Shown in pieces: positions 712 to 4,104 of a stretch of DNA of 4,104 bases. The stretch lies in IMG/VR virus record IMGVR_UViG_2671180620_000027; one strand, 5' to 3'. Made by a program: the position numbers and the translations under genes. How positions within the stretch are numbered: position 1 is the stretch's first letter; each line of letters begins with the position of its first letter. The notes beneath the pieces were generated by a model. The model saw only the letters and a program-made list of their open reading frames with translations, ran no database searches and had not been told where the DNA came from. Source of the DNA: a virus. Its lineage: Duplodnaviria; Heunggongvirae; Uroviricota; Caudoviricetes.

Positions 712-926
712 AACCCCCCCCCATTTTCACAATCAGCAACAAGAATATTTTTAGCGTCATTCAGCGACCGCGTTGCGATGTATCGGATACATTCCAGGGC
801 GAACTGTGTCCGGTCTTTCTGTTCTTCTCCCTGCGCAAGCTCTGCAGTGCATTCAATATCGATAAGCGCGTGCATCAGCGTAGTGAGCGCGGCGGCTGCT
901 GCGTCCGGTGTGGTTTTATTGCACAT
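684..926 (-). CDS. Hypothetical protein, 80 aa; C-terminus depends on G9 tract length
   Basis: Internal start of the 94-aa track ORF: ATG at 924-926 preceded by AGGAGG (plus-strand CCTCCT at 933-938) with a 6-nt spacer. Sequence MCNKTTPDAAAAALTTLMHALIDIECTAELAQGEEQKDRTQFALECIRYIATRSLNDAKNILVADCENGGGLCVMIVLIP. The ATG overlaps the stop of the upstream ORF (TAA at 916-918) in ATGTGCAATAA. The 3' end overlaps the next ORF by 28 nt. Confidence 0.5.
   Translation of the reverse strand: MCNKTTPDAAAAALTTLMHALIDIECTAELAQGEEQKDRTQFALECIRYIATRSLNDAKNILVADCENGGGLCVMIVLIP
714..722. repeat. Homopolymeric tract C9 (G9 on the coding minus strand) at a gene junction
   Basis: Direct count: positions 714-722 are nine consecutive C. 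On the minus strand the run is read as GGG GGG GGG (codons 722-714) in the 684-926 ORF and lies immediately upstream of the ATG of the 478-711 ORF. Confidence 0.9.
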
Positions 927-1476
927 GGCACACCTCCTGACGAATACGGGCGGCGAATACAGCAACACAACCGGACGGGCAACGGCTACGCGCTTCGCGT
1001 TCCGTCCAGGCGGTTACGTGGATGATTTGATGTTCTGACGCGCCAAAGATGATAAAGCGCCAGAGAAAGGCGGTTTGAGAATGTACAAGGGTAGGGATAG
1101 TAGCCATGTTGGCAGCCTCCTCAGTGTGGTTAAGATAACCGCCACCGGAAACGCCAATTTCGCTGGTGGCGGACTGTACAGGGTTGGCGTAACCGGACAC
1201 TGAAGAAACCGGCGCGGATTGCTCCGCCCCCGTACAGCCCACCATTGATAAGGTGTGACTATGCGGCACAAAAAAACACGCGGGGCGCGTGTTATGCGCT
1301 TCAGTTTTGCCCAGGACGCCAATCCCGGCACCCGTTTTATGAGGTGCGCGGGAATCATAGCTATTTTCGACACTGGCGATCAACTGGTTTTTTTCTCCGA
1401 TATTCAGGGCCAGAAAACGCCACACAAAGGCCGTTTGTGTGTGTACAAGGTGTGGTATATGATTTACGGCAACCAT
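916..1476 (-). CDS. Hypothetical protein with internal paralogous repeat (186 aa from ATG 1474-1476; alternative 63-aa product from internal ATG 1105-1107)
   Basis: This is the C-terminal part of the 409-aa track ORF. ATG at 1474-1476 is preceded by AGGAG with a 5-nt spacer. An in-frame internal ATG at 1105-1107 is preceded by a strong AGGAGG (1116-1121) with an 8-nt spacer. The motif IPHLVHTQTAFVWRF (1414-1458) recurs as IPTLVHSQTAFLWRF (1054-1098), with synonymous third-position differences in this frame. The true start is uncertain. Confidence 0.45.
   Translation of the reverse strand: MVAVNHIPHLVHTQTAFVWRFLALNIGEKNQLIASVENSYDSRAPHKTGAGIGVLGKTEAHNTRPACFFVPHSHTLSMVGCTGAEQSAPVSSVSGYANPVQSATSEIGVSGGGYLNHTEEAANMATIPTLVHSQTAFLWRFIIFGASEHQIIHVTAWTEREARSRCPSGCVAVFAARIRQEVCHVQ
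1054..1098 (-). repeat. Paralogous repeat copy B (encodes IPTLVHSQTAFLWRF)
   Basis: Codon-by-codon comparison with 1414-1458 on the minus strand: cca/cct, cac/cat, acg/acc and cgt/cgc are synonymous; T/S, V/L and H/T are conservative replacements. Confidence 0.7.
1414..1458 (-). repeat. Paralogous repeat copy A (encodes IPHLVHTQTAFVWRF)
   Basis: See copy B. Similarity continues into the flanking codons and the upstream SD-like GGAG. Confidence 0.7.
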
Positions 1477-1538
1477 AACGGCTCCTAGTTTACGTTGTTG
1501 GTTAGACGCCCCGTATGTGTTCCCAGCACTGCGGGGCG

Positions 1539-1566
1539 TTGATTTTTGTGTAATGGCAAGTACAAT
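1539..1566 (+). promoter_or_regulatory. Candidate rightward promoter for the RHH gene (TTGATT, 16-nt spacer, TACAAT)
   Basis: Hexamers read at 1539-1544 and 1561-1566. The predicted start at about 1573 falls inside operator copy 1. The -35 is weak, so this is tentative. Confidence 0.3.
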
Positions 1567-1610
1567 GGTAATTACCATGTAGGTATAGTAATGAAGGGTA
1601 ATTACCATGT
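1567..1610. promoter_or_regulatory. Two direct copies of GGTAATTACCATGT, each containing the perfect palindrome GGTAATTACC; candidate operator for the RHH protein
   Basis: Copies at 1567-1580 and 1597-1610, 30 bp centre to centre (about three helical turns). Copy 1 extends to the 14-bp palindrome ATGGTAATTACCAT (1565-1578). Copy 2 contains the ATG of the RHH gene (1607-1609). Confidence 0.5.
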
Positions 1611-1613
1611 CAA
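1585..1613 (-). promoter_or_regulatory. Candidate leftward sigma70 promoter for the small-ORF operon (TTGACA, 17-nt spacer, TACTAT)
   Basis: Minus-strand -35 TTGACA is the reverse complement of 1608-1613; -10 TACTAT is the reverse complement of 1585-1590; the spacer is exactly 17 nt. The predicted start near 1578 lies in operator copy 1, and copy 2 covers the spacer and -35. Confidence 0.45.
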
Positions 1614-1780
1614 CACCATTAGAAAAACGTTCGCCTCCATACCAAATGCGATTACCGGAAGACTTCAGAGCGCAGCTAGAAGAAGCAGCTAAGGCCGATG
1701 GCGACACATCTTTAGCCACTTGGATTAAACGCGTTCTCCGCAAAGAATTACAGCAACGCGGCATAGAACCCAAAGGATAA
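1607..1780 (+). CDS. Arc/MetJ/CopG-like ribbon-helix-helix DNA-binding protein, 57 aa; putative repressor of the divergent operon
   Basis: Own translation: MSTPLEKRSPPYQMRLPEDFRAQLEEAAKADGDTSLATWIKRVLRKELQQRGIEPKG, stop TAA at 1778-1780. It shows the beta-strand (YQMRLP), helix, G-x-T/S turn, helix pattern typical of RHH repressors. AAGGG at 1594-1598 is a possible ribosome-binding site. The opposite strand here is Cys/Ser/Arg-rich antisense-looking sequence. Confidence 0.7.
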   Translation: MSTPLEKRSPPYQMRLPEDFRAQLEEAAKADGDTSLATWIKRVLRKELQQRGIEPKG

Positions 1781-1837
1781 AAACTATCAGCGCCGTGGTG
1801 TGAGGTATTACGGCGCATTGCTATGCAGGACAACACA

Positions 1838-2011
1838 ATGACCGATAAAGAATTGACCAAAACATTATCACCGGCACGGAAAAGACGGCGCAGAAAGATA
1901 GAGCATGAATCAGAAAGATTCGCACCATGTGCTTTTGCCCTTGAGCAATTCCTTAAAGAGTACAGGGAAAAGCGCTCATTGCAGGTATGGCAACGAACTG
2001 AACCAGACTGA
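1838..2011 (+). CDS. Possible small basic protein, 57 aa, downstream of the RHH gene
   Basis: Internal start of the 62-aa track ORF: MTDKELTKTLSPARKRRRRKIEHESERFAPCAFALEQFLKEYREKRSLQVWQRTEPD. AGGA lies about 8 nt upstream of the ATG at 1838. It is on the same strand as the RHH gene and upstream of the plus-strand terminator. No family recognised. Confidence 0.3.
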   Translation: MTDKELTKTLSPARKRRRRKIEHESERFAPCAFALEQFLKEYREKRSLQVWQRTEPD

Positions 2012-2106
2012 TTGCATTGCCCACCAGCCTGATAGCGGCTATCATCCCCGTGCTTATGTTTGGGATCACATACACATAAGGCGCAGCGGGTTAATTGTTC
2101 AGAAAG

Positions 2107-2133
2107 GCGGCTCCATATCGGGGCCGCTTTTTT
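2107..2133 (+). terminator. Rho-independent terminator (plus strand) ending the RHH transcription unit, convergent with alpA
   Basis: Stem GCGGCTCC (2107-2114) pairs with GGGGCCGC (2120-2127), 8 bp with one G-U wobble; loop ATATC; followed by TTTTTT (2128-2133). Confidence 0.6.
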
Positions 2134-2159
2134 CGTGTTTGTCATATCTGTGATACCCG

Positions 2160-2366
2160 TTAAGCAGCCGTTCCGCGTGCTTCCTCTTCGCGTTCTTTCT
2201 GCCAGGACAACACATCATCCTCATACCATCCGCGACGGCGTAAACCAACGCGAAAACCCTGCGGAAATTCTCCGGCGTTGATCATGCTTTGCAGCGTGCT
2301 GTCTGCCTTGATGTGGATAATTTTTTTTACTTCCTGGCGAAAGATAATTTTTCTGATTGCTTCCAT
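2160..2366 (-). CDS. alpA: AlpA/Vis-family phage transcriptional regulator, 68 aa
   Basis: Track ORF MEAIRKIIFRQEVKKIIHIKADSTLQSMINAGEFPQGFRVGLRRRGWYEDDVLSWQKEREEEARGTAA. The core ADSTLQSMINAGEFP...GWYEDDVLSW matches the AlpA helix-turn-helix pattern as I recall it. Position next to a P4-type integrase is typical. Confidence 0.8.
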   Translation of the reverse strand: MEAIRKIIFRQEVKKIIHIKADSTLQSMINAGEFPQGFRVGLRRRGWYEDDVLSWQKEREEEARGTAA

Positions 2367-2862: not shown

Positions 2863-4104
2863 CTACACGGCTCGGATACCCCTTTTACCACTGGCGAGGG
2901 TTACGCCCGTCGCCGCGGCCTCGACAAATTCGCCCCACCAGCGCATCAGCACGATGCGTTTTTCTATGTAGTTGCTCCGGTTGTATGCCCGTCTAACTTC
3001 GTTGGTGTCGACGTGGGCAAGTGCCGCCTCTATTACGTCCGGCTCGAATCCTTCCTCGTTCGCTGCTGTGCTGAATATGGCGCGTAATCCATGAGACACC
3101 AGCACGCCAGCGAATCCCATACGCCGCAATGCTGCGTTAGCTGTCTGGCTGTTCATCGGCTGCTGTGGGTCTTTCAGACTTGGGAAAACGTAATTGCGGT
3201 GGTGGCTGATTGGTTTCATGGCCTCCAGCACCGCCATAGCCTGACCGGAAAGCGGGATAACGTGATCCCTGCGCATCTTCATGCGTCCGGCAGGTATCGT
3301 CCATTGCTTCGCGTCCAGGTTGATTTCATCCCACCGCGTTGATGACGCTTCGGCGGGACGGGTTACGGTCAGTAACTGCCATTCAATCAGTAATCTGGTC
3401 TGCCGTTCTGTTGCCGATACTGATAAAGCCTGCATAAGCTCGGGCAGCTGTTCGGGGCGGATTGTTGGCATATGTTTTTTTACAGGTGAGGGAAACGCCT
3501 TACGCACATTCATAGCCGGATTGGCATCAATCAGCCCACTGTTGGCGGCGTAATCCATTACCTCATTAACGCGCTGTAAAACCCGCTTGAGTGTTTCCAG
3601 GTTGCCGCGCTCCTTGATGGGGGTAAGCACTTCAACGAACCTTCGGGCGGTGAGGGTATCTATTGGCGTGTTGCCGATGAACGGGAATACATATTTATCC
3701 AGCGAACGCCAGATGTCTTTAATCGTGTTGGGGGCCAGATTCTGGCTGATTTTCACCTGGTACCATGCCGCCGCCACATTTTCGAACGTGTTCCCTTGTC
3801 TTCGGGCCTCTGTCTCTCTTTTTTGCCTCTCGTGGTCCTGCGGGTCAGTTCCGGCACTGATTAACGTCCTGTACTCGCTACGGCGTTTTCTGGCATCAGC
3901 CAGGGAAACATCTTCAAGCGATCCAAAACTCAGCAATATTCTTTTTTTGTCCGATGGTCGGTAGTAGGAAAATCTCCAGAGTTTTGATCCAGACGGTTTG
4001 ACCAGGAGAAAAAGCCCTCCGCCGTCCTGCAGGGTGTACTCCTTTTGCGCTGGTCTGGCTGCTTTGATCTGCACTGTGGTTAATGGGTGTGTTTTTCTCG
4101 CCAT
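2863..4104 (-). CDS. int: P4-type tyrosine integrase (site-specific recombinase), 413 aa, complete
   Basis: ATG at 4102-4104, TAG at 2863-2865. The N-terminus MARKTHPLTTVQIKAARP...GGGLFLLVKPSGSKLWRFSYY matches the arm-binding domain of IntA/P4-like integrases. The C-terminal half carries recombinase motifs: TVTRPAE (Arg box), SHGLRA (His-x-x-Arg), AHV, and VRRAYNRSNY (catalytic Tyr). Confidence 0.95.
   Translation of the reverse strand: MARKTHPLTTVQIKAARPAQKEYTLQDGGGLFLLVKPSGSKLWRFSYYRPSDKKRILLSFGSLEDVSLADARKRRSEYRTLISAGTDPQDHERQKRETEARRQGNTFENVAAAWYQVKISQNLAPNTIKDIWRSLDKYVFPFIGNTPIDTLTARRFVEVLTPIKERGNLETLKRVLQRVNEVMDYAANSGLIDANPAMNVRKAFPSPVKKHMPTIRPEQLPELMQALSVSATERQTRLLIEWQLLTVTRPAEASSTRWDEINLDAKQWTIPAGRMKMRRDHVIPLSGQAMAVLEAMKPISHHRNYVFPSLKDPQQPMNSQTANAALRRMGFAGVLVSHGLRAIFSTAANEEGFEPDVIEAALAHVDTNEVRRAYNRSNYIEKRIVLMRWWGEFVEAAATGVTLASGKRGIRAV

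Follow-up and report, generated by a model that had tools for sequence, protein, structure and literature searches.

A ribbon-helix-helix gene with twin palindromic sites is a candidate autoregulated repressor of the main operon of Gram-negative phage-inducible chromosomal islands

Pant and Pmnt, two divergent promoters that overlap, are both repressed by Arc (PMC2724298). In satellite P4, kil is the end of a longer frame, eta, which starts upstream of the promoter P_LE and shows coupling to the alpA homologue; eta translation occurs from the late promoter alone and prevents termination (PMC10111431). Gram-negative phage-inducible chromosomal islands (PICIs) reportedly undergo induction by AlpA, and whether any global repressor exists in these elements has been called unclear (PMC6092414). 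Here, we analyze a stretch of 4,104 nucleotides from the Caudoviricetes record IMGVR_UViG_2671180620_000027, referred to as the window, which derives from an Escherichia coli island of this kind. It carries a ribbon-helix-helix (RHH) gene of 57 amino acids (aa) whose start codon abuts one of two identical palindromes, O1 and O2, set within two predicted opposing promoters, P_L and P_R. We propose for the 57-aa protein the role of an Arc/Mnt-like, autoregulated repressor that controls the main operon of this island through O1 and O2, a reading that sequence comparison leads us to consider likely. By analogy, its closest functional counterpart is the immI region of phage P22 and its closest positional counterpart is the P4 immunity region.

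Our non-exhaustive search of the literature on PICIs, capsid-forming PICIs (cf-PICIs), and repressors returned no description of this RHH gene as a regulator. Accounts of PICI and cf-PICI organization leave a repressor unmentioned or count such genes, YlcI/YnfO and 'HicB' among them, as accessory; the YlcI/YnfO proteins are entered simply as 'prophage-associated' (PMC13612085). In the literature, the palindrome string itself turned up in nothing but unrelated primers and genomes.

Two copies of the 14-mer GGTAATTACCATGT, at 1567-1580 and 1597-1610, are spaced by 30 bp, and both contain the perfect 10-bp palindrome GGTAATTACC (O1 and O2; Table 1), as an earlier reading of this DNA made without database searches (the sequence-only reading) had described. 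Approximately four perfect 10-bp palindromes are expected by chance per 4.1 kb; the window holds exactly two, both GGTAATTACC, with none elsewhere. At least three matches, allowing up to two mismatches, occurred in 0 of 200 dinucleotide-preserving shuffles. We regard the identical pair at this position as the signal, a single palindrome being unremarkable. The two sites also form an inverted repeat, I1, of 12 perfect pairs around a 20-nt loop (1565-1576 complementary to 1597-1608), and an Rfam scan at relaxed threshold found no match at the operators or the leader.

The predicted promoters are interleaved with these sites. P_L is the best promoter-like site of the whole window in a consensus scan. 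The RHH ATG (1607-1609) overlaps its -35 hexamer by 2 nt, and bases 2-7 of the gene, TGTCAA, are the reverse complement of TTGACA. These coordinates confirm the earlier placement of the second copy over the RHH start codon and the -35 and spacer of a leftward promoter. The first copy had been placed at the starts of both this promoter and a weaker rightward one, and O1 indeed lies at or next to both starts, which hexamer positions put at ~1578 (leftward) and ~1573 (rightward). Because of these positions, P_L and P_R appear to be overlapping and face-to-face, not back-to-back, though the genes they serve diverge.

The substitution pattern indicates that the 57-aa open reading frame (ORF) is a real coding gene under purifying selection in the plus frame, because differences concentrate at third positions and synonymous changes exceed non-synonymous ones. 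Across 52 distinct RHH gene segments, codon positions 1, 2, and 3 account for 27, 13, and 60% of differences, synonymous codon differences number 21455 against 11972 non-synonymous, and identity is 68% for nucleotides, 76% for the sense protein, and 60% for the antisense translation. A protein search recovered 93 homologues, nearly all of 55-60 aa, from Enterobacterales, Pasteurellaceae, Gilliamella, Aeromonas, and Oceanimonas, with a C-terminal half that is almost invariant between genera. Some sources label homologues 'HicB family antitoxin'.

Searches of PDB sequences, with the single protein and with a 30-sequence profile, returned only spurious designed helical repeat proteins, with AmrZ at E=0.5-1, and fold comparison was used because these searches were uninformative. 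The structure model comprises a β-strand followed by two helices over ~45 residues, the secondary structure of an RHH protein, and on this basis we assign the RHH fold that the sequence-only reading had predicted; the model is a monomer. Arc/MetJ proteins form intertwined homodimers and use paired β-strands for reading the major groove. Profile alignment (hhalign) pairs RSPPYQMRLPEDF with KMPQFNLRWPREV of Arc and DDPHFNFRMPMEV of Mnt at E about 1e-3 and a probability of 17-27%. The common β-strand motif is P-x-[FY]-x-[LMF]-R-[WLM]-P.

Comparison of related loci provides the evidence that links the protein to its sites. From 66 loci in reference genomes, 80 in IMG/VR, and E. coli variants, we retained 101 distinct protein/upstream combinations from Enterobacterales, Pasteurellaceae, Orbales, and Aeromonadales, all with an ATG/GTG/TTG-TCAA start; promoters were scored in 39 genome-contig loci and the window. 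Nearly all of the 101 variants have O2 at -10 or -11, counted from the start codon, with O1 26-35 bp upstream, most commonly 30-31. P_L is kept in almost all of the 39 loci, with a perfect TTGACA, a spacer of 17-18 nt, a good -10, and a total of 9-11/12. For P_R, a TAnAAT -10 hexamer abutting O1 is conserved where the outer bases of the sites are GG..CC; in the TG..CA class, the -10 seems to be the first six bases of O1, TGTAAT, as read by eye where the automated scan made no call.

Site sequence follows protein sequence. The arm RSP accompanies outer bases GG..CC in 50 of 51 variants, and the other arms (KTD, KSx, GNP) accompany TG..CA or TG..AC in 42 of 50. Residue 13, equivalent to Arc N11 at the dyad, tracks the centre of the site, which is AATT where the residue is Q (73 of 92 variants), ATAT where it is P (7 of 7), and GACC/GGTC where it is R (2 of 2). 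O1 and O2 change jointly across variants. Imperfect sites are present in either orientation (loci L075 versus L134), and in many loci, including that of the cf-PICI EcCIEDL933, O1 and O2 differ at 1-2 central bases or are direct copies, each being near two-fold symmetric; at locus L014, each site is non-palindromic and the two are exact reverse complements of one another. We consider the co-variation of the sites with the arm and β-strand to be strong indirect evidence that the RHH protein binds them, and the pattern is that predicted by direct recognition, despite the small number of independent changes. The two-fold symmetric 10-bp sites and the match between residue 13 and the site centre lend indirect support to binding by a β-ribbon dimer. 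A symmetric dimer is favored over an RNA hairpin between O1 and O2 because imperfect sites occur in either orientation, and such a hairpin was rejected given that O1 and O2 also differ from each other. When the palindrome was sought in related elements, as the sequence-only reading had suggested, its position relative to both promoters proved to be kept across genera and its sequence to co-vary with the DNA-reading residues.

We propose that one RHH dimer would bind each GGTAATTACC palindrome through a two-stranded β-ribbon (residues about 10-16, PPYQMRL). Occupancy of either O2 or O1 should silence P_L because O2 lies in the spacer and O1 just past the -10, at the start. Transcription from P_L is predicted to cover a Kil/Icd-like ORF, immunity RNAs of the P4 type, and the genes for replication and packaging. 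As O1 abuts the P_R -10 and covers its start, and O2 covers the ribosome-binding site and start codon of the repressor, the protein would also limit its own synthesis. With starts only ~5 bp apart, RNA polymerase would be excluded from occupying P_L and P_R jointly, which could create a bistable switch. Induction would probably come from a leftward transcript of the alpA promoter that crosses the repressor gene antisense and continues across P_L, in the manner of P_LL in P4. The immunity or induction switch envisaged in the sequence-only reading suits the phage-satellite context of the locus, with its integrase, alpA, replication, and packaging genes and its related islands.

Several observations weigh against this proposal. 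Searches for an RHH/Arc family gave a divided answer: PHROG 228 'Arc-like repressor' matches the protein at 1.5e-6, but Pfam PF03869 (Arc) reaches 14.3 bits against a gathering threshold of 20.4 (E=0.038, residues 9-32 only), and NCBIfam NF041551 (YlcI/YnfO) likewise falls short, at 18.7 bits against a cutoff of 30 (E=1.4e-3). The co-variation counts are phylogenetically non-independent and amount to roughly 4-6 independent changes. The 26-35 bp range of O1-O2 spacing makes cooperative reading of both sites unlikely. The immunity RNAs, isrK and C4, were found in only 1 of 12 reference loci tested. Where C4 is present, full repression of P_L would, by analogy, starve it, as P4 P_LE must stay active for CI RNA; P_L must fire enough for C4 RNA, which makes partial repression, or different timing of the two layers, probable.

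The locus could also be mainly an addiction (toxin-antitoxin-like) module, in which the repressor silences a toxic cell-division inhibitor and loss of the island kills or arrests the cell. We judge this unlikely as the principal role, and it is in part compatible with a repressor of the main operon, the DNA-level mechanism being identical. P1 Icd blocks cell division and over-expressed P4 Kil kills, the RHH gene is far more conserved than any neighbor, the antitoxin label of some homologues would fit, and index entries for the protein exist in 122 blocks of the collection. Moreover, loci of Yokenella (L068/L069) and Erwinia aphidicola (L070/L071), at ~9500-10200, retain the RHH gene together with a small leftward ORF, show no recognizable satellite, and lie among toxin-antitoxin and defense genes (RelB/ParE, HipA, SIR2_2, AAA_13); these loci may be remnants or addiction-like modules. 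Most RHH loci, however, are satellite-sized elements bearing integrase, alpA, primase, and capsid genes. Pfam, NCBIfam, and PADLOC revealed no toxin family beside the RHH gene, the last giving no matches at all, and the downstream orf62 is also without a toxin match in PHROG. Type II systems have an adjacent, co-transcribed toxin, whereas the Kil/Icd-like ORF runs opposite to the RHH gene, outside any common operon, and there is no sign of contact between the two proteins.

Rather improbable, in our estimate, is a regulator whose main targets lie elsewhere, in helper-phage promoters or host genes, with local palindromes that are autoregulatory only and a P_L left uncontrolled. Satellite regulators that act on helper genes are known, such as CapR of the Vibrio phage-inducible chromosomal island-like element (PLE; cited in PMC10111431), and the near-invariant C-terminal half could reflect a conserved partner. 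Against such a reading stand an O2 lodged in the P_L spacer with its geometry kept in nearly every locus, the confinement of GGTAATTACC in the window to O1 and O2, and operators that change with the protein inside the same cassette. Very improbable is that the repeats are nucleic-acid structure, or sites for AlpA, integrase, or integration host factor, with a hairpin in read-through RNA that could sequester the start codon. I1, with its perfect pairing, and the reverse-complementary sites of L014 would suit such a structure, but the predicted starts of both promoters fall inside or beside O1, so that neither primary transcript would hold both arms; the paired sites differ or are direct copies in many loci, yet each is near two-fold symmetric; and site sequence follows the RHH residues, with AlpA and integrase not conserved alongside. 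We find it scarcely credible that the 57-aa ORF is spurious and the true coding sequence a long minus-strand ORF annotated as Icd-like/Ash pseudogenes. RefSeq annotates it so and the minus frame is open for 409 codons, but substitutions follow the plus frame and the antisense translation is less conserved than the DNA itself. Family matches of the minus frame are limited to its last 150 codons, downstream of P_L, and it is interrupted in about half of the related loci, whereas no such break affects the RHH frame.

The window shares 100% identity with E. coli O103 RM8385, in which it forms the integrase-proximal 4 kb of a small island adjoining tRNA-Pro (Table 1). This island encodes an integrase, an HTH (helix-turn-helix)/AlpA gene, Icd-like and Ash-like ORFs, DUF4222, a RepA-family helicase, TerS, and a major capsid protein. 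We assign the element to the Gram-negative PICIs because this gene set matches their described organization (PMC10111431); PICIs and cf-PICIs are recognized by int, alpA, replication, and capsid or terS genes on an island of ~8-16 kb at a specific attachment site, a description that the RM8385 island fits. Related islands were located in O157:H7 and EcCIEDL933, and many 8-17 kb IMG/VR contigs carry the RHH gene. At least 80% of positions 1500-1800 is present in about 472 of 5426 complete E. coli genomes (~9%), including O157:H7 and O26 strains, and many genomes in this survey match the cassette flanks only. RefSeq leaves the 57-aa ORF of RM8385 unannotated and places a partial 'Icd-like' pseudogene on the opposite strand (1630-2145); the same omission and antisense pseudogene recur in most other E. 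coli genomes. The sequence-only reading attributed the missing gene to its small size, which is part of the explanation, the pipeline's preference for the long antisense ORF being another.

Table 1. Coordinates of genes, sites, and RNA elements in the 4,104-nt window
Feature	Position	Strand	Detail
RHH (Arc/Mnt-like) candidate repressor gene, 57 aa	1607..1780	+	Stop included
O1, putative operator	1567..1576	.	Palindrome GGTAATTACC between both -10 hexamers, at/next to predicted starts of both promoters
O2, putative operator	1597..1606	.	Palindrome GGTAATTACC in P_L -35/-10 spacer; abuts RHH start codon, overlaps its Shine-Dalgarno
P_L, predicted strong leftward promoter	1585..1613	-	TTGACA 1613-1608 / 17 nt / TACTAT 1590-1585; 10/12
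P_R, predicted weaker rightward promoter for RHH gene	1539..1566	+	TTGATT 1539-1544 / 16 nt / TACAAT 1561-1566; 9/12; -10 abuts O1
Shine-Dalgarno-like GAAGGG for RHH gene	1593..1598	+	Overlaps O2; read from sequence
orf62, 62 aa, Arg/Lys-rich, downstream of RHH gene	1823..2011	+	phrog_21027 E=1.6e-15
Intrinsic terminator ending rightward RHH-orf62 transcript	2101..2133	+	14-bp stem + T-run
409-codon open frame, P4 eta counterpart	916..2145	-	ATG at 2145, 14 nt past alpA stop
Leader stem-loop, 5' of P_L transcript	1506..1539	-	Inverted repeat I8; 10 pairs, 6 compensatory (RNAalifold, 19 loci)
First P_L ORF, 186 aa, Ash + Icd-like segments, P4 kil counterpart	916..1476	-	ATG 1476-1474, SD (Shine-Dalgarno) AGGAG upstream
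isrK-type RNA (seqA in P4 literature)	1271..1347	-	Rfam RF01394, 66 bits vs gathering 50; terminator 1293-1275
C4 antisense RNA (CI RNA of P4)	1162..1249	-	Rfam RF01695, 77.6 bits vs gathering 45
AlpA-like HTH regulator / excisionase	2160..2366	-	Pfam Phage_AlpA E=0.0028, sub-cutoff; PHROG excisionase/regulator 2.5e-6; RefSeq: HTH regulator
Tyrosine integrase, island end adjoining tRNA-Pro	2863..4104	-	Pfam Phage_integrase 5.7e-29

Along the predicted P_L transcript, the first element is the leader hairpin, which is kept in different genera, whose single-sequence fold has z = -2.2, and to which no Rfam family matched. A conserved UCUGACCA-like stretch (UCUAACCA in the window) follows to about 1490, and then come the Shine-Dalgarno sequence, the ATG, and the 186-aa ORF, which encloses the isrK-type and C4 RNAs. 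These RNAs have been equated with the seqA and CI elements of P4 immunity (PMC3632133). The 186-aa ORF matches phrog_29966 end to end (E=6e-110), as well as Pfam Phage_ASH and the NCBIfam Icd-like C-terminus. Downstream, in the RM8385 island, lie DUF4222, the RepA helicase, TerS, and the capsid gene.

The two RNAs are a variable part of this transcript. EcCIEDL933 and the O157:H7 island, whose RHH cassette is 99% identical to that of the window, have the same promoter, leader, and Icd-like gene without C4 and isrK, and the isrK-C4 block (1162-1347) is an insertion/deletion polymorphism inside the Icd-like gene (relative to L075 7513-7810 and L073). The Icd N-terminus occurs twice in the window (about 1420-1476 and 1075-1107); in EcCIEDL933 and the O157:H7 island, the Icd-like gene is single and 65 aa long. 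Many RHH loci lack both RNAs, which ruled out C4/isrK RNA immunity as the whole story. From these comparisons, the invariant core appears to consist of the RHH gene, O1/O2, P_L/P_R, the leader hairpin, and the Icd-like ORF.

On the rightward side, orf62 is probably in the same operon as the RHH gene. At L005 6178-6363, a second small ORF directly 3' of the RHH gene, in the orf62 slot, looks paralogue-like by eye (NIRFEDELLEQID...SSWVKEACREKLERQEIEPK). The 409-codon minus frame, which RefSeq splits into 'Icd-like' and 'ash' pseudogenes, runs antisense across orf62, the RHH gene, the operators, and P_L, and then in frame into the Kil/Icd-like ORF. Of 39 non-redundant loci, 9 keep this frame open for at least 60 codons past the RHH gene; the other two minus frames are open to that extent in 2 and 1. 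It starts at or overlaps the stop of an alpA-like ORF in L005 and L054 (an uncultured Enterobacterales genome and Buttiauxella), and at the stop of another small upstream ORF in L047 (Tatumella). The substitution pattern ruled out this frame as a sequence-conserved protein. By analogy with P4, it is probably an eta-like 'translated spacer' with the RHH gene nested antisense within it. Forti et al. (1999) are reported to have described P4 eta and kil in agreement with the account given at the outset.

Two further observations concern the wider element. A C9 homopolymer (714-722) separates minus-strand ORFs 478-711 and 684-926, which match two halves of one PHROG family (phrog_2512, 154 aa) and where RefSeq flags a frameshift; this could be a slippage-prone tract or a sequencing error. 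The Rfam int-alpA RNA (RF02996) is found in the Pasteurellaceae relatives L031 (8529-8594) and L072 (7939-8004), and was not detected in an Rfam scan of the window.

Across related loci, tblastn with the window and island proteins found, besides the RHH gene, a distant integrase in about half and distant RepA, DUF4222, or Icd-like matches in three; the RHH gene is far better conserved than any neighboring gene. EcCIEDL933, the prototype cf-PICI, for which induction and packaging by a helper phage have been shown experimentally (bioRxiv 10.1101/2022.09.08.507074), carries an unannotated 63-aa RHH gene (L075 7790-8036), antisense within an annotated 247-aa 'hypothetical protein'. It has a TTG start, the strand SPQFRMRI, and repeats GGTGACCAC(C/T); its TTG-TCAA start again forms the -35, and the orf62 downstream is identical to that of the window. 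In other E. coli PICIs, YlcI/YnfO-family RHH-like proteins occupy the same slot with their own inverted repeats beside a TTGACG -35, as at L074 6280-7290 and L156 2540-2975 (repeats GTGTAAGACAC; GTGTGTTTCATG / CATGAAACACAC), L074 having two such modules in tandem. These cassettes have their flanks in common, the leader hairpin to the left and 'RGIEPKG-stop ... atcagcgccgtgg' to the right. We propose that the repressor gene, operators, and promoters form a specificity cassette swapped between related satellites, an exchange that would resemble the immunity-region polymorphism of temperate phages.

These findings raise a broader idea, which we put forward tentatively and regard as doubtful in its full extent: that the RHH and YlcI/YnfO-type proteins supply the master repressor that Gram-negative PICIs and cf-PICIs seemed to lack and also determine their immunity, carried in exchangeable cassettes of protein, two operators, and two promoters, antisense inside an eta-like frame translated only from the helper-activated alpA promoter. 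If so, leftward transcription induced by the helper would act in two ways together, shutting down the repressor gene through convergent transcription and getting around the repressed promoter; a single overlapping sense/antisense gene pair would then link quiescence to induction. As vehicles of horizontal transfer, Gram-negative PICIs and cf-PICIs are widespread, and a candidate repressor on their main promoter suggests, in testable form, what keeps these satellites silent and how cross-talk between co-resident ones is avoided. There appear to be several specificity classes, each with matched operators, one of them carried by the prototype EcCIEDL933. The Q/AATT, P/ATAT, and R/GACC pairs could serve as a natural specificity series for β-ribbon DNA recognition. 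For annotation, the locus shows a well-conserved 57-aa gene being systematically displaced in RefSeq by an antisense pseudogene.

Among described satellite repressors, Stl (Rpr), the master repressor of the Staphylococcus aureus pathogenicity islands (SaPIs) and Gram-positive PICIs, is comparable in layout (PMC6092414), its gene lying between the integrase side and the replication/packaging operon and facing the operon promoter. Each is also the presumed keeper of satellite quiescence. Stl proteins, however, are larger HTH proteins inactivated by binding a helper-phage protein, whereas the candidate here is a 57-aa RHH protein with no evident sensor domain. The YlcI/YnfO proteins (NF041551) hold exactly the same position in other E. 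coli PICIs, facing the same Icd-like operon with inverted repeats and a TTGACG -35 of their own; their repeat sequences differ, and their start codons do not overlap the -35. The immI region of P1/P7 shares a C4 antisense RNA and an Icd-like protein in one transcript, but it has an ant gene that is absent in the window, and P1 uses C1 at Op51 where our candidate is an RHH protein with palindromic sites.

P4 immunity offers the closest match in position. Both loci have a leftward promoter followed by an isrK/seqA-like RNA and the C4/CI RNA, and in both a long ORF, which starts upstream of the promoter and directly past an AlpA/Vis-type gene, ends in frame as a short Kil-like ORF. They differ in that P_LE is described as constitutive and P4 immunity as RNA-based, whereas the counterpart P_L bears two putative protein-repressor operators, and in that the window has a candidate repressor gene antisense inside the eta-like ORF. 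The window element is also a PICI, with RepA helicase, TerS, and capsid genes and without psu, delta, sid, and alpha.

In function, P22 immI stands closest. In P22, small RHH repressors act on a strong promoter overlapping a weak opposing one, an operator lies within the core promoter, and the region decides the expression of a lytic or antirepressor operon; the window is predicted to share these features. P22 uses two proteins with 21- and 17-bp operators, whereas the window has one protein and two identical 10-bp palindromes 30 bp apart. The P22 operon encodes an antirepressor, and that of the window a Kil/Icd-like protein together with immunity RNAs and genes for satellite replication; searches of the window ORFs brought up no Ant, KilAC, or Bro match, and the genes downstream are Kil/Icd-like, DUF4222, RepA, TerS, and capsid. 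Sequence similarity to Arc and Mnt is marginal, and the start codon of the candidate repressor doubles as the opposing -35. Relative to both P22 immI and P4, what differs is the combination of one RHH protein and twin identical palindromes at a P_LE-type promoter inside a PICI.

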